Source: Eledone cirrhosa (Eukaryota). From it: a stretch of DNA of 64,000 nt. The translations under genes and the position numbers were made by a program. The stretch covers positions 17,980,001-18,044,000 of the forward strand of contig OZ024741.1 in NCBI GenBank assembly GCA_964016885.1. The letters run 5' to 3'. The notes under the pieces are model-generated. The model was not told the DNA's origin. It did not search any database and worked only from the letters and a program-made list of their open reading frames with translations. Of this stretch, positions 20,805 through 63,035 are shown piece after piece; position 1 is the stretch's first letter, and each line of letters starts with the position of its first letter.

Positions 20805-20990
20805 GGCGGTGGATTGGCAATATCAGTATAGGGTCGGACAACATGCTTTGACGCATAGAGTTACGGCCCTTGCCATTCTGAGTTCAAATCCCGCCAAGGT
20901 TAACTTTGCCTTTCATCCTTACGGGGTCGATAAAATAAAGTACCAGTGATACACTGGGTAATTGCTGGCCTTGTGCCTAACGTAGAAACA
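20805..20990 (+). mobile_element. tRNA-derived SINE inserted in the Helitron
   Basis: B-box GAGTTCAAATCCC; flanking direct repeat ATTATTTATTGAAG at 20791-20804 and 20991-21004; other copies in the window. Confidence 0.85.
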
Positions 20991-21309
20991 ATTATTTATT
21001 GAAGACTTCTGCTTATTTTGACAGGTTGGGGACAAATAATTTTCCTCTTTTACTTCCTAGCTGTATATTCTTAGCATAATTTCAAACCCCGGGCAACGCC
21101 GGGTAAATCTGTTAGTATATATATATATATTGCATTTCCGTAGCGGAATGGAAAGATCCCACAGTTAAATAAGTTACATTAAGGAGAGAAAAAGGAAGCA
21201 TAATTTATTTCAGAAGGAAATTACTTCTACAGGACTAGCCCTGTTTCAGTCGGTTATATACGTAAAAGGACTCAACACAATTAAACTAAAGCAGCTAACC
21301 TAACTTATA

Positions 21310-21497
21310 GATGTTTGGCAGTATGGGTGGAGGGTTGGACGCCATGCTTTGACGCATAGAGTTACGGCCCTTGCCATTCTGAGTTCAAATCCCGCCGATG
21401 TTAATTTTGCCTTTCATCCTTACGGGTTCGATAAAATAAAGTACCACTAATGCACTGGGTAATTGCTGGCCTTGTGCCAAAAAGTAGAAACAATTAT
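21310..21497 (+). mobile_element. SINE, same family as 20805
   Basis: Collinear similarity. Confidence 0.82.
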
Positions 21498-22420
21498 TTC
21501 ATTTCGAATACAAATGAACTTACATATGAAACAAACTTTCTTACATAAAACACTGAAATATAACTCTTTTTCTCTCCCCACCTCTTTCTCTCTATCTCCC
21601 TCTCTGTCTCTCGCTCTTTTCCTCCTCTCTCGCTCTCTGTATATATATGTGTATATCTGTGGGTTGTTTGTATGTATATATATATATTGCTCGTGATCTA
21701 CCCCTGTGGTTTCATCCGACTGGCTTTCTCCCTAAAATCTGTCCCGAGAGATTCTAAGCACCTGTCCAAAATACTGGAGTTGGGATCTCTCGATTCGGAG
21801 AAGCACTGGGAACCCAATCGAGTAAGCTTATTCCCCCAAACTTTAGGCAATACTCCCACTAATTCTCAAAGACCTGCCACAGTGTAATTACATGGTCGGC
21901 TGTGCTGTGTTAGGGGTGAAAACCACCCTGTTCGTCAGTCAGCATGGGCTCTACAGTATCCCTACATGCTTTTTGCCGGACAATTAGTATATACATAAAC
22001 CTTCACTTGAAAATATATGTCTGCGTATATAAATACGTGAATATGTCAATATGTACAGATATATATGTGTGTTTAATTCTTCCCAGTGTATGTATGTGTG
22101 TAACTCTGTGTGTGTGTGTGTATCTGTGTGTCTGTGTGTGTGTTCGAATAAGTGTTTCCGTTCACGCCTCCTTATATCCCCGTATCACGTGATCTGTTCA
22201 TTAGCTTCCAGGTCAGGTATTACAAGTTCAGTAATGATAATAGTAATAATAGTGTGGTGAAGATGGTGGTGGGAAGGATGAGCATGATGAGGGGAAGGGG
22301 GGAGCAGGTGGAGGGGGAGGAAGAGGAGGAAGAGAAGGAAGAGAAGGTTGAGGAAAAGGATGCGGATGAGGGAGAGGAGGAGGAGAATGGTGATGATGAG
22401 GAGTTGGAGGAGGAGAGTTT

Positions 22421-31799: not shown

Positions 31800-31880
31800 A
31801 TAATTGTTTCTACTTTTGGCACAAGGCCAGCAATTTCCCAGTGTATTACTGGTACTTTATTTTATCGACCCCGTAAGGAT
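31800..31880 (-). mobile_element. SINE 3' fragment
   Basis: Matches the 3' half of 20805-20990; a similar plus-strand piece lies at about 10805-10855. Confidence 0.72.
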
Positions 31881-34434: not shown

Positions 34435-37400
34435 TTCTTCTGGTTTTATAATTTCACAAATTTTACCAATAGAGAGAGAGTCGGTTTCTAACATAGACAC
34501 AAAACTCTCTCATTGGAATTCACACAACATCAACTAGGTAGATATGTATGTATGCATGCATGTGTAGATATGGATGTTATTGTATGTGTGGATGTGGATG
34601 TTTTGAGTTGTATGTGTGCATGTGTATATGCTTTGTACCTGTACATGTGTATATACAGTTATTAGATGCAACATTTTTGGAATGTTTTACATATTTTTAC
34701 TGTTCCATTAATAGATTGTACTTGTAATTTCCTCATTAGTTGTGTTCTTTCAGTTCCTGTGAAGCCTAGCTTCTCAAGATTTGTATTGAGGCAGTTACTA
34801 ACATATCCCAGTGCCCCAATAATCACAGGCATAAATCTGAAGGTGTAATCAGGGTGGAATATCTGCAGATTCCTCATCAGTTCTGCATAAATATTCTCCT
34901 TTTCGCTAATCTTTGATATTATATTGGTATCTGCTGGGCAGCTAACTTCCACTACTGTGCATGTTTTCTTCTCCCTGTCCCATATCATCATATCTGGTCT
35001 GTTACGCCTGCATTTTATTGGGGTTTTTACTGGCACATTCCACCAGTACTGTTTCATATGTACATGGATGTCTTCCACATTGTTGTAGCTTTTAATGTGT
35101 TTATTATCGGGGCTATCTTTTTTACGAACTGCATTGTACAGTGTTTTGGCCACTACATCATGCCTCATAGGAAGATAGTACCACGATGACATCTTTGGGC
35201 AGCTGCTGATGACATGGGTGCTATCCTCGATGTTAATTCTGCAGAGTCTGCACTTGTTATCACATCTAGGTGTTTTGCCTGCATCCCTATCTCTTTTGTG
35301 AATCAGGTATTTCGTACTAATCTCCTGTTTCTGGATTGCAAAAGCGTATCCTTCAAAGTGGGAGCCAATATAGCGGTTGTTGGTCCAAGATAGACTACTT
35401 TCCTTATCTATATTACTCTCACTCTGGAGCTTCCTGGCAACATATCCATGCATGATTTTTTGCTGATAGGCATGCAGTTTTTCATCCATGGATTCTCTTC
35501 GATACTGCTGAGCGACATCCCTGGGTGTGAGCTTTTGATTATCACATAGAATATCTCTCAAGGAGTTGCTTCCCAACTCTCATGATCTTATCTGGTTCAT
35601 GCAGATAGACTTGCTCGAGAAGCGGGCTCCTACGCTTCGAGGTTCGTAGATGTTGTCGGAGAGATATGATGCGACCTTCAAATGTTGTCTGGACTGATGT
35701 TAGGCCTCTGCCTCCCTGCTTACGTTTCAAGTAAAGGCGGTCTATGTCACTGTTGATGTGAAGTTTCCGGTGTTGTTCAGTATTTTTTGAGTTCCAACAT
35801 CAACTGCTCGGATTTCGTCTATCGTCCAATTGAGTATTCCAAACGTTGGAGTTAGGACAGGCACAGCAAACACATTGTGAGCCACTGTTTTGTTTTGCGC
35901 AGAGAGTTCCGATGACCAGATCTTTCTTAATCGGGTGTAGTATTCCCTGGTTACGCGTTCTTTATTACAGATACCATTATAGGATATGTTCTCATCTATC
36001 CCCAGGTATCTGTAGCAGTCCTCATCAGATATCGGTGAAACAGTTAGACCATTGATGACAATGTTGCTAGATTGGGTTGTTGTTTTTCCCCGCTTTACAG
36101 TCACGCATGACCATTTATCTTGGCCAAACTCCATTCCTATATGCTTTGAGAACGTTGTAACCAGGTCAAGATTTTTCTTCATCCCATTCATGTTCTTGGC
36201 ATAGAGTTTCAGATCGTCCACAAAGAAGTTATGGATTAGGTTCGTATTTCTGTCCTCCTGTGAGCCAATGATGTATCCCTCACATTTCTTGAGCAGAAAG
36301 GACAAGGGGTTTAATGACAAGATGAACAATATCACAGAGAGACTGTCTCCCTGAAATATACCCCTGCAATATTTTATTTTATCAGTGAAAATAGAGTCCT
36401 CCCTCTCTGTCTTTAACCTTAGGATAGTAGCCCAAGAAGAAGACAGCCTCTCTATGGCTCTGATAATAATGTCTGGGACTTTAGCAAGTTGGAGGGCCTC
36501 TATCATCCAAGAGTGGGGAACAGAATCGAAAGCTTTCTTGTAGTCCAGCCAGACTGTAGTCATATTCCTCCTAAGTTGTCGCACCTCTGATATCGCAGTT
36601 TTGTTGATTAGGAGTTGTTCAACATATCCCCAAACCCTTTTCTTTCCAGCTGCTTGTTCATCTGTGATGATGTTATCATTTTCACAGTGATCTTGGAGGA
36701 ATATGTTCAGGCAGGCTGTATACATCTTATACATCAGGTTCTGGCATGCAATGGCTCGGTAGTTTTTTGCCAAGTGGGTGTCTTTGTTCTTGGGGACCAG
36801 TAACGTTTGTGCTAATGTCAACCATTCTGGTATAAGTGTATCTCCCTTAAGAACTTGTTGGTAGAGGTCAGTAAGATACCTCCGATAGAATATTAGTTGT
36901 TTGTACCAGTAGCCGACAATCATGTCTCTTCCTGGTGTTTTCTTATCTTGCAGTTTTCCTATCACAGTCTCAAGGGTACCCTCACTTATTTTGTATGTTT
37001 TTGTTGCAGTGTAGGAGCAATAGTTCTTTTGGATTTCTCTTAGCCACACTGCATCTTGGTTGAAATTCTTCTTTTCACCCCATATTTTTCTCCAAAAGGA
37101 ATCTATGTCTTTCTGGGATGGGGCCTCAGCGACACTTATTATTTTGCCCTTCATATCTCTATAGACTGATGTTTGGTTACGTCTGAATCTTTTATTAAGC
37201 ATTTTTCTCTCATCTACCTTCTTCAGGTATCGGCGTTTTTCGCTAACAGCTCTCAATTCTTGTTTGCGGGTGATCAGCTTATATTGGAGAGTTCTGGTTC
37301 TACTGTTACCAAACATCGTCTCTATTTTATTTTTCACTCTTTGTTGGTGAGGAGTGAGTTTTTTTTGTGTTTGTTTGCATGTAAGGAGCATTGTCACATG

Positions 37401-38503
37401 TCCTATGTTTTTTCGTAGGTCAGCACTCTTTTTTTCTATTTTAGTTATATATGATGGTATTTTTGTTGGTGTCTTGTTCTTGTTAATATCTCTGCTATCA
37501 CCAAGATAATGCTTCACTGTCATTGCTAAGGCATATAAACAGGCGTTGATTTGCCAAAATGTTGGGGTTTTTATCCGTCGTAATTATTCAACCCCTATTT
37601 CGTCAATAACACGTAGTATTTGATTATTTGGTTTTTTATTCACCATTGTCATTTTAACACGTTCAGCCAGAGAGATATTTATACATGAGTTAATTTCTCT
37701 CTGGAACATTTCGTTGAGGGAAATTTTCAATTCTTTATACTTTTGATTATCATTATCGATAGTATTTTCCACAACAGTCGAGGTAGACTCGGATGGTATA
37801 CGTGGTGTCACATTTATTCGATTATTATTATTATCGATAGTGTTTTCCCCAGCATTCGAGGTAGACTTAGATGGTACAGGTGGTGTCGAGCTTTTTACAG
37901 GCATAGTTGTTTCAAGGCGCTGTTCGACCTGGCTGCTAGGAAGTCTAGTAGCATGGCGACCTGTAACACGTGTTGATTCCATGTTTGTTGTGGGGGACTT
38001 ACAATTAATAATATTTATCTTATTTTTACGTTCAACAAACGTCGCTTGTTGGCGTAATTGTTTCGCTGTGAAATAATTTAGCTCTGGGTGCATTTCGTCC
38101 CAGTGTAGCTTCATATAGCCAATGGAGGGATTGTTTTTTGCCACTTTATAACAATTAAATAAATCATTATTAAGTTCGCAACTCCAAGAGAAATGCGATT
38201 TATAATTTCGGTTTCTTCTGTAGCTACAACTTGTTATTTGTCTTCGATACTTCCTTAATTTTTTTGTTGATGTTGTGTTCAGCCCTGCTGTTTGTAGCAA
38301 ATCCTTGTAAAATGAATTATGTATTTAGTCGGATATCTCTACGAATTCGAATAAAAGATGTCTTCAAAAGGGATAGTTAGAAGAATAACCAGTTATTCAA
38401 CCTGGCTGTAGTTGTGGCATTACTGTCGGAGATAGTATTCATCTTAAATTTAATAAATAGTCTCCCACGCCAAAATATGCGACTGATCGCGTTGACTGAC
38501 TGT
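34435..38503 (-). mobile_element. R4/Dong-like RLE LINE family D3, near full length, flanked by (CATA)n
   Basis: Coding fragments span N-terminus to RLE; 3' end GAAGAA is followed by (TACA)n. Confidence 0.9.
34662..38300 (-). pseudogene. D3 ORF (RT plus RLE), several frameshifts
   Basis: [53 protein letters not shown]. Confidence 0.9.
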
Positions 38504-38546
38504 TATGTATATATGTATGTATGTGTGTATGTATCGATTATGTATG

Positions 38547-39087
38547 TTCTTCTGGTTTTATAATTTCACAAAGTTTTACCAATAGCGAGAGTCGGTTTCT
38601 AACATAGACACAAGACTCATTAGAATCAACTAGATAGATACGAGGCAATATAGCGGTTGTTGGTCCAAGATAGACTACTTTCCTTATCTATATCACTCTC
38701 ACTCTGGAGCTTCCTGGCAACATATCCATGCATGATTTTTTGCTGATAGGCATGCAGTTTTTCATCCATGGATTCACTGCGATACTGCTGAGCGACAACC
38801 CTGGGTGTGAGTTTTTGATTATCACAAAGGTAATATCTCTCGAGGAGTTCCTTCCCAACTCTCATGATCTTATCTATTTCATGCTGATCGACTTGCTTGA
38901 GAAACGGGCTCCTACGCTTCGAGGTTCGCAAATGTTGTCGGAGGGATTTGATGCGACATTCAAATGTTGTCTGGACTGATGTTAGGCCTCTGCCTCCCTG
39001 CTTACGTTTCAAGTAAAGGCGGTCTATGTCACTGTTGATGTGGAAGTTTCCGGCGTTATTTAATATTTTTCGAGTTCTAGCATCAAT
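38547..39087 (-). mobile_element. D3 second copy, 5'-truncated and internally deleted
   Basis: 38547-38635 matches the D3 3' end; 38645-39087 matches about 35365-35805. Confidence 0.87.
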
Positions 39088-39205
39088 GTATGTATGTGTG
39101 TATGTATGTACGTACGTGCATATGTGTGTATGTTTGTAGGTATTTTTACATCTGTATACATACATATATATATACACACACACACACGAACGCATGCAGA
39201 CACAC

Positions 39206-39240
<35 letters not shown>

Positions 39241-39261
39241 TTGAGAAATAAAATTTAAAAT

Positions 39262-39318
<57 letters not shown>

Positions 39319-39634
39319 AAAGAAATAGGATTTCGCTTCAAACATCGCTTTATACAATTTGTATAAATATTTCTCCAAAGAAATACGGTTTTATGAAGCC
39401 GTAGTTATGCAAGCACCGGGGAGCTAACGCCCTCTGGTGTTGTCCAGCAGAAGCAAGGGGGACAATCACCTATGCATTTCAGGCTTAACTGGCCATCGTG
39501 AGGACGGTCCCTCCCACCGCTTGCGACTGCTGGGCTAGAAGATAGGCGAGAATATATTGTTTTCTCGTCTGTGTAAATAAGTTGAGCCAACTTATGCAAC
39601 TTCATATGCAAATGAGATTAATCACCTCCGTGAG

Positions 39635-42550
39635 GTTGACTTAGATAGACTTCATAGACAGAGACTGGAAGCTAAACGCGTCATTAACAGCGCGCAAGGC
39701 CTACAGAGACCAGATTAGTGAACTAGTTAAGCGGGTGTTCACGGGAGACATCGTCAACAACGAAACGTGATTTGCTCTGAAAAGAGCGATTAGAATAGAG
39801 TCCATTAAGTTTAGTAAGGCTTTAGCAATAGAGAAAAATAGAGCCGAGGGAGAACTAGTTAGAAAATTAGACGAGGCGCTTAGTAAAGGCATCGCGACCA
39901 AACGTACTTGCGGCGAAATAGGCCCTTGACCAATTCTTCAATGCATTGTCAGAGCTAAGGTGCGTGCTCTCAGACACGACGGGACGAAGCCGTTCAATGG
40001 GCCCGAGTGGCGGAGGCGCGTCGTGGCAACAAAGCCACGATCCGGTCTTTGGTGGACCATGACAGGCGCATGCTACTCAATCCCGGGAAAATATGTGAAG
40101 CTTTCCAGCGACACTTCTCTCAGCTGTTCGGCGGCAGCGGCGCGCCGGATCGAAGGATGGACTTTAGTGCCTACCTCGACGGACTGCTGCGGCTCTCGCC
40201 CACTGAGGCGGAGTATTGCGAAAAGCCGATAACGGCCGCTGAAGTACGGGAGGGAATGACTACACAAGGGGTAAATCGCCTGGTTTGGATGGTCTGCCCT
40301 ATGAACTTTACGTACAGATGCCAGACTTGTTCGGAGGCCTCTTGGCGGACGTCTACTGCAACTGGCAACAGAACGCAAGAATTCCCAGCTCTGTGATCCG
40401 AGGAGCGGTGGCGCTGCTGAGAAAGGATCCGAACAAGGGGGATAACATAGATAATTTCAGGCCCATAACTCTGTTAAACACAGAGTTCAAGATTTTGTCC
40501 AAGTTGCTAGCAAAGAGGTTGGCGCTTGTCGTTGGTGGTCTGGTGGGAGAGGCACAGACATGCGCCATTCCCGACAGATCCATCCACGACAACCTCCACC
40601 TCATGCGATACATTTAGGATCGGGTAGCTAGGGAACCTGGCACGGGTGGGTCCTTGATCAATTTAGTTCAGTCGAAAGCTTTCGATAGGGTCGACCATCG
40701 TTATCTGGCGGCAGTCCTGAGGGCGGCTGGCTTTGGGCCCGTCTTCAGAGGCTGGATCGCTGCCATGTACAGCGACATCTGCTCTGTGGTGAGGGTGAAC
40801 GGTCACCTTTCGGAACCGTTCAACATCATGCGCTCGGTCCGCCAAGGATGTCCCCTCTCGTCCCTATTGTACGTATTGACTCTCGAGCCATTACTGCACA
40901 AACTGGAGACGTTGAGGGGGGTCCCGCACGAACTAGCATATGCCGACGATGTCACCGTAGTGGTGTCGAACGCCAAACACATCGAGGCGATCGGCACTAC
41001 ACTAAGAGAATACGAAGCGGTGACAGGAGCAATGATCAACCAGGAAAAGTCAGTGGGCCTGCAGCTGGGCACCTGGAGAGGCAGGTCCATGCCGTCCAAC
41101 AGCGTCGTCGGGCGCTGGACGGACGGACCGGTTAAATTGCTAGGGGTCTGGTTCGGTCCAGACCTCCAGACGGACAAAAACTGGGACGAGGTGACGAGCA
41201 GGGTGGCTTCTCTCACCCAGAAATGGGCGGAGAGGAAGCTATCCCTGAAAGCTCGAGCGGAGGTGGCTAATGCGTACATCGCGTCCGTCATCTACTACCG
41301 CCTGACCGACGTACCTTGTCCTAAGCTTCGCCTGACTGCGCTGGAGCGTTTGCTCTTTCGCTTTTTGTGGAAGGGACGCGTTCCGATGGTTAGGCTGTCC
41401 ATCTGCTGTCAACACCCGCTACGTAGAGGGCTGGGCATGCCGTGGCTGATGATGCACAGACACGCGCTCAGGCTACGACATCTCCACCTCTTCCTCGACG
41501 GTGATCAGGTGTGGTCGCCATTTGCTAGACGCGTCTTTCCCCAGCTCGTTTCCTTGACGGAGCTGCAGTCCTGGGTCAAGCGAAGACCGAGAGGGAGCGC
41601 TTGGATACTGGAATGTCTTCAGGCGCTCACAACCCTCGACCAATCGGGCAATGTGATCGGTGGAAACTCCACCTTGGCGTTCTATAGAGGATTAGTGAAG
41701 GGGAAGAGCGTCGACGTACTTGGGGAAACTCTAGGCGTCGACGAAAATCAACTAGCTAATCTCTGCGGAAGAATTTTCGGGCCTATGGACAACTTCCAGA
41801 AATCCCTGGCCTGGCAGTGCTACCGAGGAGCTTTGCCAGTTCGGGATAAACTCTACAGGCATGGAGCTGCCGTCAGCCGGGAATGTCCGAGATCCGCGCA
41901 GGGCGACGAAACCGTCCTGCACGCACTCGTCCAGTGTCCGAGCATTTCTGACTTGTGGGTTTATGTCGACACCTGCTGTCGAGTGTAGGACGGATCCAGC
42001 TATCAGCTGAGTCCATCGTGAGGATTGCCCCGCCCTCTTCCTTTAGCCGGGAAGGGCAGGCAATTTTTATCTGTCTGGTGGCCATGGCGAAAGAGATAGT
42101 ATGGTGGACACGTTTGAATGGGCTGAAGACGAGCACTTACCTCTTCGGTGATGCCCTGATTAACTTTTTCAAATTTTATTTGAAAAGAAAAATCAGGGTA
42201 GAGGGGGAAGTGCTCTCTTCCCAGCATTTTGTTGAAAGATGGGTGAGAGAGGCAAGAATGGCCCGAGTGAATGGGCCTACTCTGAGTATGTGTCTGTAAA
42301 TTAAGGGTGGAAAACTGGGAGAGGACACTTGCCCTGGTGGTCAGGGTCACTGTGGCTTTTTAATGGGCTTTCTCCACAAATGTCCCTCGGAAGTCTCCCC
42401 TCTATTGGGGAATTTTTTCATTGTTTTATTATTACATCCTCTTTTTCTTGTTTTTTACACGCAGAAATGCCCATTTGTACCGTCCTGTATTGTCCTGTAC
42501 TGTCCTTAATGTCTACTTTATGTAGACCCTTGTGGTTAATAAAGAAAGCA
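39635..42550 (+). mobile_element. Tx1 family B copy B1, 5'-truncated, decayed ORF2
   Basis: Collinear with 45516-48458; RT motifs, multiple indels; (TTA)n tail. Confidence 0.92.
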
Positions 42551-42790
42551 TTATTATTGTTTTTATTATTATTATTATTATTGGCGACCTACGTAGTAAA
42601 TCGTATCATCGTGAGCTCTGCAAAGGTTTGTTATTTCCGTTTGTTAAAAATTGTCATTTATGGAAAATTTTATTGTTAACTGTTTATAAGCGCACATACA
42701 TTGTTTTCCGAAAAGGACACCCAAAAAGATTGGGGCCTTGTGCCCAAAATTTTAACTTTTATTATTATCCAGAAATTTCTTTGAAAAAAA

Positions 42791-44780
42791 ATGGCTAATT
42801 CCCCTCTGCACGAAGCAGCTGAAAGCCTTCCTCACAAAATAACACCTCACACCGACACCACCATTGTAAATGTTACTACGTTTGCCAACACAAAAAAAAA
42901 TATAAGCAGTAGCAATATTTTAAATTTGTCTCAGGCAGACATTCATTTCCCGCCATTACCAATGACTGCAGGTGTTAAACCCTCCACCACCACCACCACC
43001 GCGACAACCACCACCACCACCACCACCACCGCGACAACAGAAACAAAAGAAGAAAAAAATAAATTAACTCGTGACGTCGAAATGAAATCAAGCAAAATGG
43101 ACTCTTCCCCACCAAAGACGACTGACGTCACCACCACCACAACTGAAAATAAAATTAATATTAACGATAGCAACAACAACAACAATGACATTATAAAACC
43201 AACCCTCAGTTTCGCCATCGTAGCAAAACAATTCGAAGCGTTCACGGTAACTCAAGAAGATTTAGAAAATGCCAAACAAATGGTAAAGAAAGATGGGTAC
43301 AGGGTCAGCCTCACCCCCCCCCCCCCTAATAAAATGGAGCATCGGCGCCTGTGCACCGTGTCGTATAGAACAATAAATGTAAAATCGCGCCGAGTGGAAC
43401 GGGCATCCGAGTCCCAAATCCAAAAAGCTTTGGGACATGTGTGGGCAAGAAAAACCCACATCAGACGTGGGCAAAAGTATGGAACCGTGGATGTGTTCTT
43501 TGAAACACCAGAGGAGGCTAGAGAACACTCCATGGCCCCATTAAAAAGTGACGACCTCACACTCGTCCCAAGCTATTGTGGCCAGAGACTCGTAAAGATC
43601 AGGGTGACCCACGTTCCACCGGCCATCGAAATTCCCTGGCTAATAGCGGCTGTCCTCGCCGGCATCGAAGCCAACACGAAAATAATAGCAGTAGCAAAAG
43701 AAAAGCAGGAAAACTGGTCCGGATCTGGGATGGAGCTCCTGATCCAAGCGGACCAAAAAAGCATTGAGGAGATCCCAGAGGTAATAGACCTCACTGACGG
43801 CAGCCACCTCACGGTAATTGTCGAGGGCAGAAGACCTAGGTGTGTCGTTTGTGGTGAAGGAACCCACCTAAGGGCTTTCTGCCCTCAGGCTAAAAGGTTG
43901 AGGCCACCTCTCCTACCCACCCCAGTGACCAAACCATCAACACCACCAGTAGCAGAGATGGCAGCAACAACTGTAGCAGCAACAACAGAAGCAACTATAA
44001 CAGCAACAACCCCAGCAACAGTAGCAAAACCAACACCACTACCACCACCAGCAAAACCAACACCACCACCACCCAACGCTTCAGAACTAGCACCAGCGCC
44101 TACACCATCCACCACACCACAACCAAAACTAACGGCTGTGGAGGATTGTCCACTCCCCGGCCTATCACAACTGGAGACAGATTGTGACGACGAGGAGTGG
44201 GAAACGATATCCGGAAAAAAAAAGAAACCAAAAAAGAAAAAATTCTCTTCCTTCCCCCTCCAAAAACAAAATACAGAGGGAAACAAATAAACTAAGAAAC
44301 AAAAAAGTTAGGACAGATATGCCACCATCCACACCAGCATCACCAACTCCATCAACCCAAACACCAACACCATCACCATCATTAACTCCAACACCACCAT
44401 CACCTACACCACAAAAGTCACCAAAATGTGAAACAGAAACAAACCTACAACAAACGCAAACAAAACAAAACAACCAAAACGATACACACTACACAGCATT
44501 AAATTTGAACAACAAGCAATTATTACACTACATCCAACACAACACCAGCATCACAGAAAAAGACTACACAACAACCCCAAAATTCACACCACCTCCACAC
44601 ATACAAATCACTCGCATCACACAGAAAACGTACATGACACTAAAACAAAAATTCCCCAAAGACATCGGAGACTTCCGACAAGCACTCTCCAGGAGGATTT
44701 ATAAGGACATCCTTCCTGAGGAGGCCACAAGCAGTGAAAAGGATGGAAAAGCCGTCCTTCCCCTATGAGAAGTAAGGTAA
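42791..44780 (+). pseudogene. Family B ORF1 (frameshift near 44220-44240; TGA four codons before the homologous TAA)
   Basis: Homologous to A ORF1 (KSRRVERASESQIQKALG; CVVCGEGTHLRAFC). Confidence 0.88.
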
Positions 44781-44814
44781 GTGGTCTTTCCCATCTTTTC
44801 CACTCCTTTTCAAC

Positions 44815-47800
44815 ATGACCTCACTCAGAATAGGCAGCATAAATGCGCGTGGCTTGGGGTCGTCATGGAAGCAGGGCCACCTGCTCAACGACCTCAGGTC
44901 ACTAAACATAGATGTAGTGGCCATCAGCGAGACCAGAATCTCCGAAGCACAGGCTTTCGCACCGATCTTCGGCGGCTACGATGTGTACGCATCTCCCAGC
45001 CGTCCGGGATCGGGGGGAGGAGTTGCTGTGCTTTTTCGGAGAGGTTTGGATCTTGCCATACGGACCATCTTCCTGGACCCAGAAGGTAAGTTGGTGGTGC
45101 TGGACGTGACCAGCGGAGACGGGCAAGCTTTCAGGTTAGTGGCCGTCTATGCCCCGACAGGAGCAGGGCGGCCTGATTTCTTCCGGCGTCTGGAGACCTT
45201 TCTTGGAACGTCCCGCTCTTTAGTGTTAGTGGGCGACTGGAACGGGATCTTAGATGCACGCTGGGATTGTGTGGGATTAGTGGATAGGGAAGGAGGGTGC
45301 AAGAGTCTCACCAACCTGCTCAGACGTTTTGAACTGTCTGACAGGTACCGAATGGATTTCCCGAATGTACCAATGTGGACTTGGACAAATCGCATAGGGT
45401 CATCCAGATCATATCTAGATAGAGTATTTTGTAGGGAAATGGATAGGTCTAGCATAGGCTGTCCACAATTCAAGATAGTCAGCTACACGGACCACAAATT
45501 CGTGATCTGTGTGCTTGACTTATATAGGCTTCATAGACGAGGACCCGGCTACTGGAAGCTAAACGCGTCCTTACCAGCGCGCAAGGCCTACAGAGACCGG
45601 ATTAGCGAACTAGTTAAGCGGGCGTTGACGGGGGCCATCGTCAACAACAAGTGGTGGTTTGCTCTGAAAAGAGCAATTAGAATAGAGTCCATTAGGTTTA
45701 GTAAGACTTTAGCAATAGAGAAAAATAGAGCAGAGGGAGAATTAGTTAGAAAATTAGATGAGGCGCTTAGCAAAGGCATCGCGACCGACGTACTTGCGGC
45801 GAAATTGGCCCTTGACCAATTCTTCAATGCAAAGCACGAAGGCTGCGTTGTCAGAGCTAGGGTGCGTGCTCTCAGACACGAGGGGACGAAAGCCGTTCAA
45901 TGGGCCCGAGTGGCGGAGGCGCGTCGTGGCAACAAAGCCACGATCCGGTCTTTGGTGGACCACGACGGGCGCATGCTATTCGATCCCGGGCAAATGTGTG
46001 AAGCTTTTCAGCGACACTTCGCTCAACTGTTCGGGGGCAGTGGCGGGCCGGATCGAGGGATGGACTTTAGTGTCTACCTCGACGGACTGCCGCGGCTTTC
46101 GGCCACTGAGGCGGAGTGTTGCGAAAGCCGATAACAACCGCTGAAGTACGGGATGCAATGACTAGTTGCACAAGGGGTAAATCGCCTGGTTTGGATGGTC
46201 TGCCCTATGAACTTTACGTACAAATGCCAAACTTGTTCGGAGGCCTCTTGGCCGACGTCTACTGCAACTGGCAATAGAACGGGAGAATTCCCAGCTCTGT
46301 GAGCCGAGGAGCGGTGGCGCTTCTGAGAAAGGATCCGAACAAGGGGGATAACATAGATAATTTTAGGCCCATAACTCTGCTAAACACAGAGTTCAAGATT
46401 TTGGCCAAGGTGCTAGCAAAGAGGTTGGCGCTTGTCGTTGGTGGTCTGGTGGGAGAGGCACAGACATGCGCCATTCCCGACAGATCCATCCACGACAACC
46501 TCCACCTCATGCGATACATCGTAGAGAGGGTAGCTAGGGAACCTGGCACGGGTGGGTCTTTGATCAATTTAGATCAGTCGAAAGCCTTCGATAGGGTCGA
46601 CCATCGTTATCTGGCGGCAGTCCTGAGGGCGGCTGGCTTTGGGCCCGTCTTCAGAGGCTGGATCGCTGCCATGCACAGCGACATCTGCTCTGTAGTGAGA
46701 GTGAACGGTCACCTTTCGGAACCGTTCAACATCATGCGCTCGGTCCGCCAAGGATGTCCCCTCTCGTCCCTATTGTACGTATTGACTCTCGAGCCATTAC
46801 TGCACAAACTGGAGACGTTGAGGGGGGTCCCGCACGAACTAGCATATGCCGACGATGTCACCGTAGTGGTGTCGAACGCCAAACACATCGAGGCGATCGG
46901 CACTACACTAAGAGAATACGAAGCGGTGACAGGAGCAATGATCAACCAGGAAAAGTCAGTGGGCCTGCAGCTGGGCACCTGGAGAGGCAGGTCCATGCCG
47001 TCCAACAGCGTCGTCGGGCGCTGGACGGACGGACCGGTTAAATTGCTAGGGGTCTGGTTCGGTCCAGACCTCCAGACGGACAAAAACTGGGACGAGGTGA
47101 CGAGCAGGGTGGCTTCTCTCACCCAGAAATGGGCCGAGAGGAAGCTATCCCTGAAAGGTCGAGCGGAGGTGGCTACCGCGTACATCGCATCCGTCATCTA
47201 CTACCGCCTGACCGTCGTACCTTGTCCTAAGCCCCGCCTGACTGCGCTGGAGCGTTTGCTCTTTCGCTTCTTGTGGAAGGGACGCGCTCCGATGGTAAGG
47301 CGGTCCATCTGCTGTCAACACCCGCTACGTGGAGGGCTGGGCATGCCGTGGCTGATGATGCGCAGACACGCGCTCAGGCTACGACATCTCCACCTCTTCC
47401 TCGACGGTGATCAGGTGTGGTCGCCGTTTGCAAGACACGTTTTTCCCCAGCTCGTCTCCTTGACGGAGCTGCAGTCCTGGGTCAAGCGAAGACCGAGAGG
47501 GAGCGCTTGGAGACTGGAATGTCTTCAGGCGCTCACAGCCCTCGACCAATCGAGCAATGTGATCGGTGGAAACTCCACCTTGGCGTTCTATAGAGGATTA
47601 GTGGAGGGGAAGAGCGACGACGTACTTGGGGAAACTCTAGGCGTCGACGAAAATCAACTAGCCAATCTCTTCGGAAGAACTTTCGGGCCAGGGCCTATGG
47701 ACAACTTCCAGAAATCTCTGGCCTGGCAGTGCTACCGAGGAGCCTTGCCAGTTCGGGATAAACTCTACAGGCATGGAGGTGCCGTCAGCCGGGCATGTCC

Positions 47801-48209
47801 GAGATGCGCGCAGGGCGACGAAACCGTCCTGCACGCACTCGTCCAGTGTCCGAAAATTGCTGACTTGTGGGTTTATGTCGAACACCTGCTGTCGCTTTTA
47901 GGATGGATCCGGCTATCATCTGAGTCCATCGTGAGGATTGCCCCGCCCTCCTTTAGCCGGGAAGGGCAGGCAGTTTTTATCTGCCTGGTGGCCATGGCGA
48001 AAGAGATAGTATGGTGGACACGTTTGAAAGGGCTGAAGACGAGCACTTACCTCTTCGGTGATGCTCTGATTGACTTTTTCAAATTTCATTTGAAAAGGAA
48101 AATCAGAGTAGAGAGGGAAGTGCTCTCTTCCCAGCATTTTGTTGAAAGATGGGTGAGAGAAGCAAGAATGGCCCGAGTGAATGGGCCTACTCTGAGTATA
48201 TATCTGTAA
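44815..48209 (+). pseudogene. Family B ORF2 (APE-RT-Zn knuckle), 1-nt deletion near 46125 and stop near 46275
   Basis: ORFs 44815-46134 and 46299-48209; QGCPLS, YADD. Confidence 0.93.
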
Positions 48210-48485
48210 ATTAAAGGTGGAAAACTGGGAGAGGGCACTTGCCTTGGTGGTCAGGGTCATTGTGGCTTTTTACTGGGCTTTCTCCACAAATGTCCCTCCG
48301 AAGTCTCCCCCTATTGGGAATTTTTCATTGTTATTTTTTGTTACATCCTCTGTTTTTGTTTTTTACACGCAGAAATGCCCATTTGTACCGTCCTGCATTG
48401 TCCTGCACTTTCCTTAATATCTACTTTATGTAAACCCTTGTGGTTAATAAAGAAATCATTATTATTATTATTATTGTTATTGTTA

Positions 48486-50545
48486 TTCCTTGAATCTCAG
48501 TCATTGATGTTGGTTAACTGGAAAGTCCGTTGGATTGAATATCAAGCCACTACCTGCAGCCTCAGATATTCAGGACGTATCGGAGGGTTCTTGCCGTTCC
48601 AAGCAAGCATGCCTTTTGAAGCGTTCCAAAAAGCGTGAAGGGGCCGATTTTCTTTAACCATCCCTGGAAACCTTTGGAGATAGTCCCCAGTGCGCCTATG
48701 ACAATCGGGATCATTTTGACTTCATGGCAGTTCCAAATCCTTTTCACCTCCCACTTTAGGTCCTGGTATCGGTTAATTTTCTCCCTCTCCTTCTCTTGCA
48801 CTCTCGTGTCGAACGGGCAGGCCACATCCACAATCAGGCACGATCTTTTTTCTTTGTCCACAACCACCAGGTCAGGTCTATTGTGTTCCAGTTTTTTGTC
48901 CGTCTGTATCCTAAAATCCCACAGCACCTTCACCTGACTGTTCTCCATCACCGCCTCTGGCCTATGCTCATACCATTTCTCAGAATGTGGTAGATTGTTT
49001 ACTTTGCACAGGTGCCAGTGGATCACCCTGCCCATCACATCGTGTCTCCAGCCCTTATAGTGGGTCTGGGCTAGGTGTTTACACTCGGACACAATGTGGG
49101 CCACAGTCTCCTCTCTCTCTCCACAGATCCTGCACAGTGGGCTAGCCTCCTCCTTGTAGATATGGTGCTTCAACCACTTCGTTTTGAGGGCCTGCTCCTG
49201 CGCAGCCATTAGCATTCCTTCTGTAGCCTTTTTGAGGTCTCCTCTTCTCAACCAGTTCCATGTCTGTGGATCTCTAAATTCAGTTTTCTCAAAGAAGGTA
49301 CTATGAAGGGATTTTCCCTTAAGGCTGCTCTTCCTCCTTGATGTTATTTCCTCCTTGGATATCCCCTGGCCTACTGTCCCCTCCTTCAGTACAGCTCTGA
49401 GCATTGGCTCCTTACTATAGGTCACGTATTTGTATAGGTTGTTTTTCTCCATCTGAACACAGTCCTCTATGCTGATAAGACCTCTTCCACCCTCAGATCT
49501 CCTTAGGTAGAGTCTATCGACATCACTCCTCTTGTGGAACATGTTGTAGATAGTCAATAGCTTCCTAGTCTTCCTATCCATTTCTTTTTGTTCAGCAACA
49601 TTCCATCTCAGAATTCCCGCACTGTACCTAATAATAGACACAGCTCGGGAATTTACTGCGCTTATGGCATTTCTGCTGTTCAGATGTGACTTCAATACGC
49701 TCCTTACTCTCCGAATGTATTCAGTTCTTAACAATTCCTTCATTTTTTTGTTCTTTATGCCATCAGCCTCCAGAACGTCCAAATACTTGTATCCTTCCTC
49801 AGAGTCAATTTCCTTTATCATCTCACCTGTTGGTATCTGGATCCCGTTACTTCTGCTCAACCTACCCCTCCTCATCACAATGACTCCACATTTACCAATA
49901 CCAAACTGCATACATATATCACTGCTGAAAATACGGACAGTGTCAACAAGCACATCCAACTCCTTCTCACTTTTCCCGAAGAGCTTAAGATCGTCCATGA
50001 AGAGGAGGTGATTGATGGTAAGCTCTCCCCTTCCCAACTTGTATCCTGCTCTCACTTTTCGCAGCATAATGGTCAAGGGCATCAGGGCAAGGACAAACAA
50101 CAGAGGGGACAGGCTATCTCCCTGGAAGATACCTCTCTTGATCTTCACGCTTCCCAAGGATACTCCAGTTGATGTCAACTCTGTCTCCCAGGACCCCATA
50201 CTCCTGCCCAGCAACTGTCTGATGTTATCTGCCACCCTGAAGATCTCCAGGCTTTTGGTGATCCAGGAATGAGGCACCATGTCAAATGCCTTTCTGTAGT
50301 CTATCCATCCCATGGCAAGATCAGTGTGTCTCCTCCTGCAATTCCCCATTACCATCTTATCAATAAGCAACTGGTCCTTTGTACCACGTGACTTCTTTCG
50401 GCATCCTTTCTGTTCGTCCGGTAACAAGTTGTTTGTGTGGAGGTGATGGTAGATTTCCTCAGACACAATGCTCGTCAACAGTTTCCACATTACGGGCAGA
50501 CATGTGATAGGTCTATAGTTGGTAACATCATTATAGTTGGTAACA

Positions 50546-51215: not shown

Positions 51216-51521
51216 ACCAGGGTTTAACTATATTATTTAATAGATTTACGTACGTTTCTTTCGAAAATTATTTATTTACTATAGTTTATAACTTTCCCTA
51301 TTAATCCGTATGGTGAGCAAATGGGGTCCCACGTGCTGGACTCCCCACAGCCCCGGCGGATAGGATGGAGAAGGCGTTTCCCCGGGGGACGGCAAGGGAG
51401 ACGCGCTGGAAAAGCCATTCCAACTCGCGAGGCTCACACCTGCGACTGGCCAGCTCCGCGCCTATATACAGAACGAATTACCGTTTATCCCTCTGTATTG
51501 AATTTTTCAGAATCATTAAAT

Positions 51522-51708
51522 AATTGTTTCTACTATTGGCACAAGGCCAGCAATTATCCCAGTGTATTACTGGTACTTTATTTTATAGACCCTGTAAGGA
51601 TGAAAGGCAAAGTTAACCTCGGCGGGATTTGAACTTAGACCGTAAAGGGGCGTAACTCTATGATGCAAAGCATGACGTCCGCCCCTCTACAGATACTGCC
51701 AATCCGCG
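51522..51708 (-). mobile_element. SINE, same family as 20805
   Basis: Collinear; TTAAATAAT on both sides. Confidence 0.8.
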
Positions 51709-51789
51709 TCCGTTAAATAATATAAAAAAGATAGTTTATTACCGACCACATCTGTGAATGTCTCCAAACAGTAAACTATTGAAAAACGT

Positions 51790-55382: not shown

Positions 55383-55452
55383 CACATACACATACACATA
55401 AACACACACACACACATATATATATACATAGAGTCAGACAGACAGACATACT

Positions 55453-55598
<146 letters not shown>

Positions 55599-55600
55599 TA

Positions 55601-57670
55601 GTAAACCCTCTGTTAGATTAATTAGTCCATTGAAGTCAGATATAGGAATTATCAGTAAGAAAATTTTAGACGGCGTTATACCCACCATCAGGAGGAAAAT
55701 AAATCTAGAGCTATGGGAGAATACGGAAGAGGTTTTGAAATGGTTCTCAAGCCTTAGCAACCATAAATCCCTTAAATTTATACAATTCGACATCGATGCG
55801 TACTACACCTCAATCTCCCCCATACTCCTTAATAAGGCCCTAATCATGGCCTTGCAGAAAAGTGACCTCACTAGGTCTCAAATTGATGTCATTCTTGCGG
55901 CCCGGAAAACGATAATCACAATTGAGGACGAATTGTGGACCCGCAAGAATACGCCCAATAACTTCGACATCACAATGGGATCTAGTGACTCTGCACAAGT
56001 AACGGACCTGGTAGGATTGTACCTCTTAAAGGAGTTACATGAGACATTACCGCACTTGAAGGGCGGCTTATACCGTGATGACGCCCTCCTCACTCTCGAG
56101 TATAAAAAGTGCAATATAGAAAGAACTAAGAAACAGTTACGTAGGTTCTTTAAAAACTTTAATCTAAGTATTACCATAGATGCAAATGACAAAACAGTAA
56201 ACTTCCTAGACGCCACCCTTGACCTAGAAACTAAAACATTTGCACCCTACCATAAACCTAACGATAGACTAACATATGTAAACGCCAGCTCCAACCACCC
56301 CAAATCAGTCCTAAACGCTATTCCCAAAGGGGTCTCTAATAGAATTAGCAGACTGTCCTGTAATGAAAGTATCTTCAACTCCAATGCAGAGTATTATGAC
56401 AAGGCCCTAGCAGAATCTGGTTACGGGAGTAGATTATCATATATACATAAGGACTCCAAAACCATGAGTGTGAAACCTACCAACATAATCACACATAGTA
56501 TGGCCACAAAGCCTAACCAACTTAGAGGCAAGAATAATAGTAAGAACCCTAATAGCGGTAACCCAGCTAAATGTAACCCACGTAAAGACAATACTAGAGT
56601 CCCTCACCACAACTCTAAAACAGCAAATGATCACGCCATGAATATAAACCATCCGGGCTTAAGCAAAACAGACAACGCCACTAACGTTAATAACGGAACC
56701 CTACAAAATAGTACGCACAGTAGCGAGACTCACCCCACAGATAAGAAAAATAGAAGAAGGAAAAACATGTATTTTAACCCACCTTTTAACTCTGAGGTCC
56801 TCACTAACCTCCCCAGAGTATTCTTCTCATTATTAGAAAAAAACTTCCCACCAGGCAATAGATATCGCAACATAATTAACAAAAATGTGATTAAATTATC
56901 CTATTCGACCACACCTAACCTCGCATCACACCTAGCACGCACGAACATTAGGAAAACTAGGGAAGGTTTCGAAGCAATTAAAATGGCAGTTAACCACCAG
57001 CAACCGACTACACTGGAAAATGGGCAACATAATAGCATCAATGAGCCATCTAATTATATAGAGACACCTAGTGATAATGCTAGTAACCAAAGTTCGGGAG
57101 GTACGCTAACTAATCGAACCCGCAGTTGCAATTGTAGGCGGAGTAGTAATTGTCCCCTAAGGAGGGATTGCCTCATGAAAAACATCGTATATGCATGTGA
57201 CGTAACCACACACAACTCTACCAAAACATATATAGGAGCAACGCCCAATACAATTAAAACTAGATTTAACGCGCATATGTACACATTTAGACACGATAGA
57301 CATAAGAATGCCACCTCACTGGCGGTATACATCTCCTTTTAAAAAAATAATAGTACCCCATACAAACTTTTTGGAGGAAGCTTACTAGATCCACGCCATA
57401 CCGACCGCAGAGCGGGAGTTGTGACCTGTGTTTGCTGGAATGCCATGCCATAATACACTCTAAACTGAACCTGCTTAACAGGAAATCGGAAATTTTCTCC
57501 TCTTGCCAACACAAAATCCTGAGTTCCTTCTTCTATTTTAAACCTAGCACATAGACGTAACATATATTACGCAACCCCCACCTAGACATACCCCTCCTTG
57601 ACTATAGATTCCCCCCTTCCCCAACCCGTAACCCAGATAGATAGGTAGACTAAGGGTGGAACAGTCCCCT
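55601..57670 (+). mobile_element. Penelope-like element 1 (RT plus C-terminal GIY-YIG), 5'-truncated at (TA)n, frameshift near 57340
   Basis: [54 protein letters not shown]; 3' boundary approximate. Confidence 0.9.
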
Positions 57671-58954
57671 ACAAGGTTGGTGTTTTTGTGTGTGTGTGTA
57701 TGTGTGTGTATGTGTGTGTATGTGTGTGTGTGTGTGTGTGTATTCTCCTTTTCTCTCTCACACACACACACACACAAACATATGTCTATGTGTGTGCGTA
57801 CGTGTGTGCATGCATGCATGCATATGTGCGTGCATTGTATACATGTATATTGTATATATATATGTATATTGTATGCATGTGTATTATATTGTGTGTATGT
57901 GTATATGTGATATGTATGTGTATATATGAATGTATGTGTATATGTGTGTATGTGTATATGTGTGTGTATGATGTGTGTATATATGTGTATATGTATGTAT
58001 ATTTTTTCTGAGAAGTCTTCTCTATATGTGGTGTTTGGCATGAATTCCTCCTATAATGCTCTTCTTTGAGAGGAGTACGATATGTAGAGTAACACATATG
58101 TATTGTCGAAGTTGAAACTGAGAACCACCAGCCCTCCTGCTGACCCAAATGTTTACTGAGGACCAGAACACAATTTTCCGCAATATAAGAGAGGAATGCG
58201 TTTGCCGGACTATTGATGACCAAAACATCACATTCCAAGGTAATGGCAAAACACAGTGAATGCTAAACACGACCAGAACACCACAACATGCACATCGGAG
58301 CAACAGAGATATAATATCAATAAGCGAATCAATTTAATTTTTTGAGTTGAAATACATATAAATATGTGTCTGTGTGTATCGGACACACGTACACATAAAG
58401 AAACTGCTGACCTAAATGTACCTGTCATGCCTGTCTGAATTCCTAAGAGAATTTTCAGTCAGTTACTATCTTGACCGATTACCCTCACAATTACTACGTA
58501 GCGGTTCTTGCACGTGACTGCTGGACCCGGATGAAACGAAGACGAAGAATTTCCTTGCCTACCGTTTTGTACCACAGATGCGATCTCACTCTGCCGATTT
58601 TTGTATAATTAATGAGCTCCAAATTGTTGAGCTAATAATTCGCATGGTCGGGCTGCACTTTCTAGCATCTTTCCCAACCATGAGAGCCGTTATTTGATTC
58701 GAATAACACGTGATTTCGCCCACTCTGGCTCGCGTGTCTATTTGCAATCTCTCTAGCTATGAAGGTTAGATGTACAGATTTCAGTCTCGCATTTTGCTAA
58801 CTGATGATCCATGTGGACTGTTATCCTGCACATATAGGTGGTGACACATATAAGTGGTGAAACGAAAAACTAGGTTCGTATCAGCAAAAAATATAGTTAT
58901 AAGGTTTGTGATTTAAAATTCCAATCCAGAGATTTGAATCTGATCTGGTTTTTT

Positions 58955-61153
58955 TCTATGAGTATGGGCGCCAGTGATTCTGCGGAGGTTACTGATCTTA
59001 TCGGCCTTTTCCTTCTTTTCTCTATCAAGGACGAATTCCCCAACGCGGGCGGTGGTTTGTACCGTGAGGATGGTCTTTTGACCATGATTAAGTGCGGACC
59101 TCGTGCTTGCGACAGGTTCAGAAAAGAACTCACAGCCTTCTTTAAAGGCTTCAACCTCTCTATACAGGTTGAGGCCAATCTCTCGGTCGTTAATTACCTC
59201 GACGTTACCCTCAACTTATTGAATGGGTTGTATTACCCGTATAGAAAGCCGAATGATACGCTTAATTACATAAGTAAGCATTCCAACCATCCTGCCAGCA
59301 TAACCAAGAACCTGGTAAGAAACGTTTCGTTGAGGCTTTCCCGTCTTTCCACCAACGAGCGTATTTTCAACGACCATTCCACTTATTACAATGAAGCTCT
59401 TGCTCGAAGTGGATTTGTCGATAAGTTAGCATATACAGAGTACGAAAATAGACCTAGAAGAAATAGATCCCGTCGCATTTGTTGGTATAACCCACCATAT
59501 AATATGGAGGTGGCCACACCATTAGCTAAGATCTTTCTTTCCCTTATAACGAAGCATTTTCCCCCTACACATAAGTATAGTAAAATTTTTAATAGAAATA
59601 CTATTAAAATTTCTTACTCTACGACTCCTAACCTTGCACATAACATCACAGCTTCAAATTTAGCTAAACTACCTGGCCGTAGGAACACGTGCAACCCTGT
59701 AGTTAGTACTAACTGTAATTGTAGGAATCGGGTTGACTGCCCCCTATCCGGGAAATGCCTCTCTAGTAACATTGTCTACAAATGTAAGGTTGTAACACCC
59801 ACGTCCCGTAGGGCCTACATAGGGTTAACCGCCAATAGATTCAAGCAGCGTCTTTACATGCATACCCATTCTTTTCGTTACCCTCTAAGAAGGAATATGA
59901 CGTCACTTTCAGCTTATATCTGGAGTCTAAAAGACAACCACACCTAAGTTACACTGGGAGATCCTAGCTAGGGCTAGATCGTATAACGGAAATAAAAGAC
60001 CATGTGACCTCTGCGCCGTTGAGGCCCTGGAAATACTCTACGCCACAGTCCACATCTTAAACAAAAAATCTGAGGCAATTTCGGCTTGTAAACATAAATT
60101 GCACAAAACTTTCCTGTATTACAGCCCCACGTTATACCCTAACGGATAGTACGATCTATACGTGGATATTTTACGTCTCGATGTGGGAGCCTAGTATATG
60201 TTTTATTTATACCTTTACTTATTTGCATAGGTAAGTATATATTATCCGTATGTTTTGTGAAGGTACGTATACCTTCTCGTACGTATATTTGATTGTTATG
60301 GCGTATAATTTTTTAATATATTCTGGTACATATGGTTCGGCTATGTGTATACGGGAGTTTTGCGTCTGTGTGAGTATGCAGGTTCGTACGTATGTAGGGC
60401 GTGTGTATATGTGTACTTCATGTTTTGGTTGACTTACGTCTCCGAACATTCGTGTATTTACATGTAGGTATGTGTGTGCGCTTGTTATATACGTATTTAT
60501 TTATTTATATACGTTTATATAATTATTTATTTATTTGTATACACGCTTACACACACACACATATTTATATGTGCGTGGTTTTGTATAACCATGGCAAGTG
60601 TTTTCGCGTATGCTTGTGTATGTACGTATTTGTATGCGTGTATGTATTTATTTAATTTCTATTACCTCTGTATTGTATTTTATTTACTTCATACTTAACT
60701 CTGAAGCGGAGATTCATTCGGTTTCCTAGTTAGAATTTTAGTCTACGACTTCAGTTATACCATTTACGTGGTTTTGTCTTTGCGTGTAATTGTTCTCCCC
60801 GCTCCACATAGGACGTATTATCTTCGTTTTTTCCGTTCATTGCCAGAGAACGTCTCTATGAACCACCTAAGAGAATATTAGTCTACGACTTCTTTTATAA
60901 CATAAACCTGGTTCTGTCTTTGCGCGTAATTGTTTTTCACCGCTCCTATTAATGACGTATTATATTCGTTTTTTCCCGTTCTTAGCCAGCGAACGTTTCC
61001 ACAAACCAAAGTATCGTCTTCCTGTCTTCCTCCGGTTGCAACGTTTTTTGAAATATCCAGTTCTGCGTTTACAGATTGACTTTGTTAGTTTCAGAAGATC
61101 CCGTTAAGGGTGAAAGCACCGATTCTTTGCTTAAACTTTAATCTGTTATTTTA

Positions 61154-62283: not shown

Positions 62284-62851
62284 GTGTGTTAAGAAGAAGG
62301 ACGCTGAACCTAATCATAAGTTTATTCCTACTACAATAAAATGCTGCGAAATGACAGATGTTGTAAAGACGATATCTTCAAAACATTGATTGTGAGTAAT
62401 TTTTATGCAGCTGTGCCTGTCAACATTCGAACTGTGCCTGTCAACATTGATTGTGCGTGATTTTTATGCAGCTGTGCCTGTCAACATTCGAAAATTTTAA
62501 TATTCCCTGGAAATTACAATATTCCCAGTTCAACAAATGTCGACTTTTCTTTTGTGAAATAGCTTAAATCTGAAATGATTCTCTTTTTAGGAAGAATCTT
62601 TGACACAAATTAACATTCCTTTACATCTGGTATATAAATGTCCTCCCCAGTTGTATCGGGCAGTCCGTTTATTGTTTTGAAAAAGGATACATTGAAAAAC
62701 GCTTTAATTTCAATTTTAATAAGATATGGTCTATTAAGCAAAGGTATTTATGCGGAATATTTTCTAAACCTTTCATTCAATGTTTTAAAAAACTAAAAAT
62801 TATTTGGAAATTGAAAATATAGTCCACACAGTACAGATAACTCTAATAATA

Positions 62852-63035
62852 GTTTCTACTTTTAGCACAAGGCCAGCAATTACCCAGTACATTACTGGTA
62901 CTTTATTTTATCGACCCCGTAAGGATGAAAGGCAAAGTTAACCTTGGCGGGATTTGAACTCAGAATGAAAAGGGCCGTAACTCTATGCGTCAAAGCATGG
63001 TGCCTGACCCTCTACCGATGCAGCCAATCCACCGC
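62852..63035 (-). mobile_element. SINE, same family as 20805
   Basis: Collinear; ATAACWCTAATAATAGTT on both sides. Confidence 0.85.

Follow-up and report, generated by a model that had tools for sequence, protein, structure and literature searches.

A 64,000-nt stretch of the Eledone cirrhosa genome (the window) contains two full-length LINEs, A2 and B2, and raises the question of how two elements that are otherwise strongly diverged came to share a nearly identical segment at the start of ORF2. The preliminary description of the locus had proposed a recent recombination between two families, in which the endonuclease was exchanged as a targeting module.

The window is microsatellite-rich DNA composed mostly of mobile elements of the L1-Tx1, Dong-R4, Penelope and Helitron types, a mix resembling the repeat list for Octopus vulgaris (PMC13282606), in which 80 L1-Tx1 families are given. 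Self-comparison of the window yielded five related pieces, namely A1, A2, B1, B2 and a short B-type 3' end (9828 to 9445) (Table 1). Among these copies, the endonuclease is present only in A2 and B2, which are separated by 39 kb and lie on opposite strands, each with its own flanks. Pfam matches to PF03372 (APE-type endonuclease), PF00078 (reverse transcriptase) and PF13966 (zf-RVT, C-terminal zinc-binding) were obtained for ORF2 of both, and the endonuclease weakly matched chains of the L1 endonuclease (E 3e-6 to 1e-5). A Pfam scan of ORF1 returned no match. Direct inspection identified a CCHC zinc knuckle (C-x2-C-x4-H-x4-C) in ORF1 of A1, A2 and B2, and the atlas neighbours of ORF1, which are taken as a lead only, comprised zf-CCHC (12% of the top cluster) and ZCCHC3-type RNA-binding domains. 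A separate ORF1 with a CCHC zinc knuckle and an RNA-binding region is a feature of the Tx1 clade, and the L1 ORF1 (Transposase_22) and DUF1725 domains are markers of the mammal-like L1 clade. An assignment to the latter was rejected, as neither marker was matched in the Pfam scan of the ORF1 and ORF2 pieces. The elements are Tx1-like, a label given by architecture and target preference, with no named Tx1 reference among the protein matches; the only named relative of the ORF2 protein is from Argonauta hians (55%). Tracts of (ATT)n, which account for 0.6% of the window, were found at four of five 5' junctions and four of four visible 3' ends (counted in one window with nested copies, the 5' flank of B1 not being (ATT)n). 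They thus exceed the 20% of flanks of one type that is used to define a target preference (PMC4494074).

Table 1. Features of the A- and B-type elements and of the shared block (window coordinates).
Feature	Position	Strand	Basis or remark
Shared block in B2: last 3 ORF1 codons and stop, 34-nt spacer, ORF2 codons 1-178	44770-45347	plus	three-segment likelihood fit
Shared block in A2	5599-6177 (read 6177 to 5599)	minus	self-comparison, likelihood fit
Identical run of 41 nt ending at the 3' breakpoint	45307-45347	plus	
Element A2, full length, between (ATT)n tracts	2459-8495	minus	
A2 ORF1	8275 to 6167	minus	one stop
A2 ORF2	6131 to 2748	minus	stop at codon 308, 36-nt deletion
Element B2, full length, between (ATT)n tracts	42583-48457	plus	
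B2 ORF1	42791-44780	plus	interrupted
B2 ORF2	44815-48209	plus	one frameshift at ~46124, one stop at ~46275, 21-nt deletion before YADD motif
Element A1: 5' UTR, intact ORF1, spacer, first 33 nt of ORF2	1-2380 (read 2380 to 1)	minus	runs off window
Element B1, B-type 3' part	39627-42549	plus	5'-truncated at ~codon 232, hence without block
Endonuclease beta-hairpin loop T189-S199, outside block	45379-45411 (B2); 5567 to 5535 (A2)	plus (B2); minus (A2)	L1 mapping
Run of 434 nt identical between B2 and B1, including their shared 21-nt deletion	46701-47134 (B2); ~40795-41228 (B1)	plus	
Copy of B2 3' end, interrupted (ATT)n tail and 0.8 kb of flank (48075-49278), in (ATT)n just 5' of A2	8558-9828	minus	
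Predicted RNA stem-loop, ORF2 codons ~12-30	44849-44904 (B2; same region in A2)	plus	z for first 126 nt

Several other elements are present in the window. Three further reverse transcriptase elements at 11098-14748 (plus strand; a 1216-aa open frame), 48562-50520 (minus; between (ATT)n tracts and tail to tail with B2) and 34662-38324 (minus) have C-terminal nuclease-like motifs and no APE domain, and are presumably Dong/R4-like. A degraded element at 34662-39390 includes a 445-nt direct duplicate (35362-35803 and 38642-39086; 93%). A broken Helitron Rep-helicase (16429-20433, plus) was matched by the Pfam models Helitron_like_N and PIF1. Two reverse transcriptase frames with GIY-YIG-like ends (55432-57342 and 58874-59947, plus), for which Pfam gave just a weak D5_N match in the first frame, are taken by us to be Penelope-like on inspection. 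Finally, a dispersed, SINE- or MITE-like repeat family of ~190-210 nt (86-95% alike) is found at 20792-21002, 21315-21502, 31800-31880, 51513-51725 and 62845-63035.

The shared block differs between A2 and B2 at 20 of 578 aligned nucleotides, compared with base-level mismatch of 42% upstream and 17% downstream. Support for its edges in B2 spans 44770-44779 on the 5' side and 45335-45357 on the 3' side. The preliminary description had reported some 178 near-identical ORF2 codons with six amino-acid differences, and codon-by-codon comparison gave 18 nucleotide and six amino-acid differences in codons 1-178; the drop in identity that it had placed right after GACAGGTA coincides with the end of the last identical run. 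Its designation as an endonuclease block was correct as to the near-identity and inaccurate as to the limits: the block starts ~45 nt further upstream, where it takes in the end of ORF1, the stop codon and the spacer, and it covers only part of the domain, since the Pfam match extends to residue 227 and the block ends at ~178. Immediately upstream lies a 34-nt shoulder with ten mismatches, which is equalled by 9% of ORF1 windows. Within ORF2, the likelihood ratio peaked at 50.0 for a breakpoint after codon 177 (support 171-186). In 10000 permutations it never exceeded 23.6, so that none of them reached the step in silent divergence. No second step was detected in the codons after the breakpoint (p 0.94), and the remainder is uniform.

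A uniform dS along ORF2, which had been set against the recombination reading at the outset, was not found. Silent differences affect 11.5 of 136.2 sites in codons 1-178 (pS 0.084, dS 0.09) and 257.8 of 661.0 sites from codon 179 to the end (pS 0.39, dS 0.55), while replacement differences amount to 6.5 of 397.8 sites (pN 0.016) and a pN of 0.102, respectively. At four-fold sites, 6 of 94 differ in the first part versus 120 of 369 in the rest of ORF2 (Fisher p 5e-8). The claim that ORF1 and the UTRs are far more diverged was likewise borne out. The ORF1 core of A2 and B2 is saturated (pS 0.79; amino-acid identity 54%), with differences at 43 of 56 four-fold sites, again distinct from the 3' part of ORF2 (p 5e-10). 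UTR divergence tracks the adjoining segment: in the 5' UTR, 100 of 181 aligned bases are the same, barely above 20 shuffles (mean 45%, highest 53%), and in the 3' UTR 162 of 246 (66%). A2 and B2 therefore consist of three segments of three ages, namely the 5' UTR with ORF1 (saturated), the 578-nt block (dS 0.09) and the rest of ORF2 with the 3' UTR (dS 0.55). These tiers are not ORF-specific rates, because ORF and UTR rates agree within families. Sister copies differ by a dS of 0.085 (A1 and A2, ORF1) and 0.081 (B1 and B2, ORF2), and the silent divergence of the block is indistinguishable from either (p 1.0 and 0.86).

Such a pattern could also arise in a lineage that had never recombined, if the silent sites of codons 1-178 were held by an overlapping function such as a second reading frame, an RNA structure for ORF2 translation or a promoter. 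There is indeed a predicted stem-loop at codons ~12-30 (z -3.59 in B2 and -2.53 in A2), and a weak stem spans the ORF1 stop (z -2.16, -0.63 and -1.73), with compensatory changes in 0 of 26 pairs. Nonetheless, codons 36-178 alone still show a pS of 0.086 (9.5 of 110.5 sites; p 3e-11), all five other frames of codons 1-178 contain 2-12 stops, 150-nt folds compared with synonymous shuffles gave z values of +0.5 to -1.7, and folds of equal strength are predicted immediately after the breakpoint, amid dense silent changes. In a fold at codons 202-242, 2 of 31 pairs are changed on both sides in the two sequences compared. The relatives, moreover, vary widely in the block (at the protein level only). 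From A2 and B2 they differ at 20-39 residues per 109-129 covered and 35-44 per 155-176 covered, or about 20-35%, and among themselves they are 65-88% identical in 17 of 18 pairs, the remaining pair (97%) being two near-copies. Of the 178 block columns, 79 are variable among eight close relatives, and A2 and B2 differ at four of those 79, compared with 24 of 71 relative-variable columns in codons 236-436. The p values of four outgroup tests were 0.0002, 0.002, 0.04 and 0.009. Constraint is hence a very improbable cause of the silent identity. An overlapping frame was rejected on account of the stops in all five other frames, and RNA structure on account of there being just one short stem-loop and a signal that persists without codons 1-35.

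Irrespective of the cause of the identity, the stem-loop just after the ORF2 start could serve ORF2 translation, a role that such a structure is said to have in SART1. The pyrimidine-rich spacer is complementary to a purine run at the end of ORF1, and pairing of the two could enclose the ORF1 stop (44733-44805 in B2, 6215-6140 in A2). This stop sits in GGTAAGT, which we take to be a splice-donor-like word.

The changes within the block bear on when its two copies separated. For 18 scattered changes without selection, ~12 amino-acid changes are expected, whereas six were observed (p 0.001-0.003 in four mutation models). The block copies thus diverged under purifying selection, in active lineages. 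A direct conversion between the genomic copies of A2 and B2 after insertion would predict the former number, through post-insertion decay, and is extremely improbable, even though both elements reside in one 50-kb locus and a piece derived from B2 adjoins A2. This piece, at 8558-9828, differs from B2 at 7 of 379 positions in the 3' end, at 0 of 33 in the tail and at four of 791 flank bases; both of its ends lie in (ATT)n with short microhomology, and its flank stems from the Dong/R4-like element that neighbours B2, 40 kb from the A cluster. It is likely a 3' transduction of the B2 end, and at least one copy has been made of the 3' end of the B2 locus.

An assembly or polishing chimera, in which reads from distinct copies were merged where their sequences agree, deserves consideration in tandem 6-kb repeats within microsatellite-rich DNA, the more so as a 41-nt identical run lies at the 3' breakpoint. 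The identical run between B1 and B2 could itself be such an artefact. These elements differ at 154 of 2920 bases (5.3%), and an identical run of 434 nt was obtained in 0 of 5000 permutations; the 21-nt deletion just before the YADD motif is common to B1 and B2 and absent from A2 and P0004. The run reflects either a recent conversion between tandem neighbours or assembly homogenisation. As for the block, a chimera is quite improbable: its copies differ at 20 of 578 nucleotides and carry a signature of selection, the ORF1/block junction of A2 recurs in A1, a copy 4.5% apart from it, and A2 and B2 are distant, inverted and separately flanked. A misjoin elsewhere in either element is conceivable. 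Given their sister-level divergence under purifying selection, neither collapse nor direct conversion of a single sequence accounts for the block copies; A2 and B2 rather hold two independent copies of a segment from one young family.

The feature is therefore real, and recombination, all forms taken together, is very probably its origin. That divergent lineages recombined recently, as proposed at first, was supported by every test run, and the data support A2 and B2 as recombinant (mosaic) Tx1-like LINEs. Because ORF1 is older than the rest of ORF2, at least two events must have occurred. We lean towards a reading in which the block was not transferred as a module but is where two separate single crossovers overlap, with one breakpoint at the ORF1 stop/spacer and the other close to codon 178. 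In the simplest version, a young family L would have combined an A-type 5' end, this endonuclease start and a B-type 3' part; B2 would represent the ORF2 of L behind a foreign 5' UTR and ORF1, and A2 the 5' part of L before a foreign 3' part. Both crossovers could also have taken place in succession in one lineage, with the same outcome. They may have arisen during target-primed reverse transcription, if the cDNA annealed to or switched onto a related element at a conserved stretch, and insertion into (ATT)n tracts, including each other's tails, would often have placed a new copy directly behind a relative. The 5' boundary would then mark the end of usable homology, because the ORF1s are too diverged to pair.

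Two breakpoints are needed for single crossovers, as opposed to three for a moved tract. Other movement of sequence at the locus is apparent in the B1/B2 identical run and in the copied B2 3' end. Two segments were independently seen twice in the window, the A-type 5' part (A1, A2) and the B-type 3' part (B1, B2), which fits family L in a tiny sample. The junction between A-type 5' part and block is represented by two copies; those between B-type 5' part and block, block and A-type 3' part, and block and B-type 3' part are represented by one copy each. Counting against L, the family itself was not seen in the window, where A1 exits 33 nt into ORF2 and B1 has no 5' end, and an equal dS would also be expected had an A-family copy simply donated the tract.

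A donation of this kind, in which gene conversion from another genomic copy, or else a double template switch, transferred one 578-nt tract in one step on top of an older replacement of ORF1 and 5' UTR, is possible but doubtful. In its simplest form, the tract would have passed from the A family to B2 or its ancestor, with no selection on targeting. A1 and A2 have their 5' junction in common, as pure A copies would, and both unusual junctions would then be confined to B2; in addition, B1 and B2 have a homogenised tract of similar size (434 nt), the 5' end of the 578-nt tract coincides with the limit of homology, and the 34-nt shoulder could mark an older junction. Set against this are the three breakpoints required, one of them hidden inside the tract, and the lack of a B-type endonuclease among the relatives found. 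The partners are also 17% apart, a distance at which gene conversion is expected to be inefficient. Third-position make-up is alike in A and B and thus gives no codon-based clue to the donor, CpG depletion by segment was uninformative, and separate segment trees left an A2+B2 grouping unresolved at 80% support in both segments. No protein at least 90% identical to either lineage was present in the protein collections, where the nearest were 82-86% identical across a portion of the domain, and the matches thus do not distinguish donor from recipient.

Whether the exchanged piece constitutes a targeting module was judged from its content, by alignment to the human L1 endonuclease and to the loop-graft structures 2v0r and 2v0s. 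An AlphaFold model of the endonuclease (mean pLDDT 55.7, below 50 for residues 143-216) was left unused. The block makes up about three quarters of the endonuclease domain and includes N10, E39, Y112, D141 and N143, five of the seven mapped catalytic residues, with D202 and H227 outside. In the L1 endonuclease, a beta-hairpin loop (T192-S202) inserts into the minor groove and is crucial for target recognition, loop and scaffold not being freely modular (PMC1950540). This loop corresponds to T189-S199 in the present elements, past the upper bound of the breakpoint (186), and the exchanged piece thus contains neither the whole domain nor the specificity hairpin. A2 and B2 show five silent changes and no amino-acid change across its 11 codons, which means that the loop was already identical in the two 3' lineages. 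It is also the same in the relative P0011 and differs in P0006, P0007, P0008, P0010 and P0171. Compared with A2 and B2, P0011 differs at 20-22 of 109 residues in the block and at just two of 27 after it (residues matching 179-205, loop included).

The preliminary view, according to which the targeting part was exchanged and kept since it alters or improves (ATT)n targeting, does draw on precedent. The endonuclease largely sets the target, SART1 and TRAS1 were redirected by endonuclease swaps (as cited in PMC4494074 and PMC1919474), and residue Y98 in the N-terminal part of R1Bm affects specificity (PMC1919474); the block also carries most of the mapped catalytic residues and begins at the ORF2 boundary. 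By analogy with R1Bm, a targeting role of the N-terminal segment is compatible with these data. As an account of the exchange, this view is nevertheless improbable: the loop and two catalytic residues lie beyond the block, the loop is identical in both 3' lineages despite a dS of 0.55, and again in P0011, yet variable in other relatives, and there is no sign of spread, with one copy per mosaic in the window. A single module swap would, furthermore, have to be joined by another event, given a saturated ORF1 next to an ORF2 dS of 0.55. No change of target is required, given that the loop and the terminal (ATT)n are common to both 3' types.

The crossovers proposed here would add a new case to a known process, since recombination between LINE families is already established for mammalian L1. 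What sets it apart is the distance between the partners, the breakpoint inside the endonuclease and the common microsatellite target. It is a clean case from an invertebrate, in a Tx1-like lineage with a preference for a microsatellite. Searches of the open-licence literature found no paper describing recombination between Tx1 families, and the accessible parts of PMC6581046 and PMC5381506 are likewise silent on it. The arrangement suggests that target sharing promotes exchange, via head-to-tail stacking of relatives. It also serves as a warning that family libraries and trees built from reverse transcriptase alone misstate such mosaic elements. A more far-reaching reading, which we regard as unlikely, holds that the (ATT)n-sharing Tx1-like families form one recombining pool and that the N-terminal endonuclease segment confers an advantage and is therefore spreading in a sweep across several divergent families. 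If so, stacking would let lineages at a dS of 0.55, with saturated ORF1, swap segments; the advantage would consist in better nicking or escape from host silencing, and the sweep would mirror, in nature, the engineered endonuclease swaps. The case would carry greater weight if the segment proved to have spread through several families or to alter target choice.

A close parallel is provided by the mouse L1Md Tf and Gf families (PMC3600994), mosaic LINEs that arose by independent single crossovers near the 5' end of ORF2 and ~700 bp further on; frequent capture of another 5' end is described there, with a proposed origin at reverse transcription. Both systems have one breakpoint close to where ORF2 begins and another several hundred bases downstream. 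Unlike the mouse partners, which are a few million years apart, those described here are separated by a dS of 0.55 in ORF2 and by saturation in ORF1; they also prefer and stack in a microsatellite, and most of their junctions are known from single copies. The horse families L1_Ec2_VII and L1_Ec1_X (PMC5872511) similarly have a breakpoint inside ORF2, co-active families and unrelated 5' ends, but reflect one mid-ORF2 event rather than a block with two breakpoints. With the Tx1 families Kibi, which targets (TC)n, and Koshi, which targets (TTC)n, and with crocodilian Tx1 (PMC4494074), the present elements share two ORFs, an APE-type endonuclease and a microsatellite preference, whereas their own target is (ATT)n and no recombination between those families is mentioned in the accessible part of that source. 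In the SART1/TRAS1 swaps and the L1 LTx and LR1 grafts (PMC1950540), endonuclease and hairpin loop shape target choice; whole domains or loops were exchanged there, in contrast to the natural block described here, which comprises the N-terminal three quarters of the domain without the loop.
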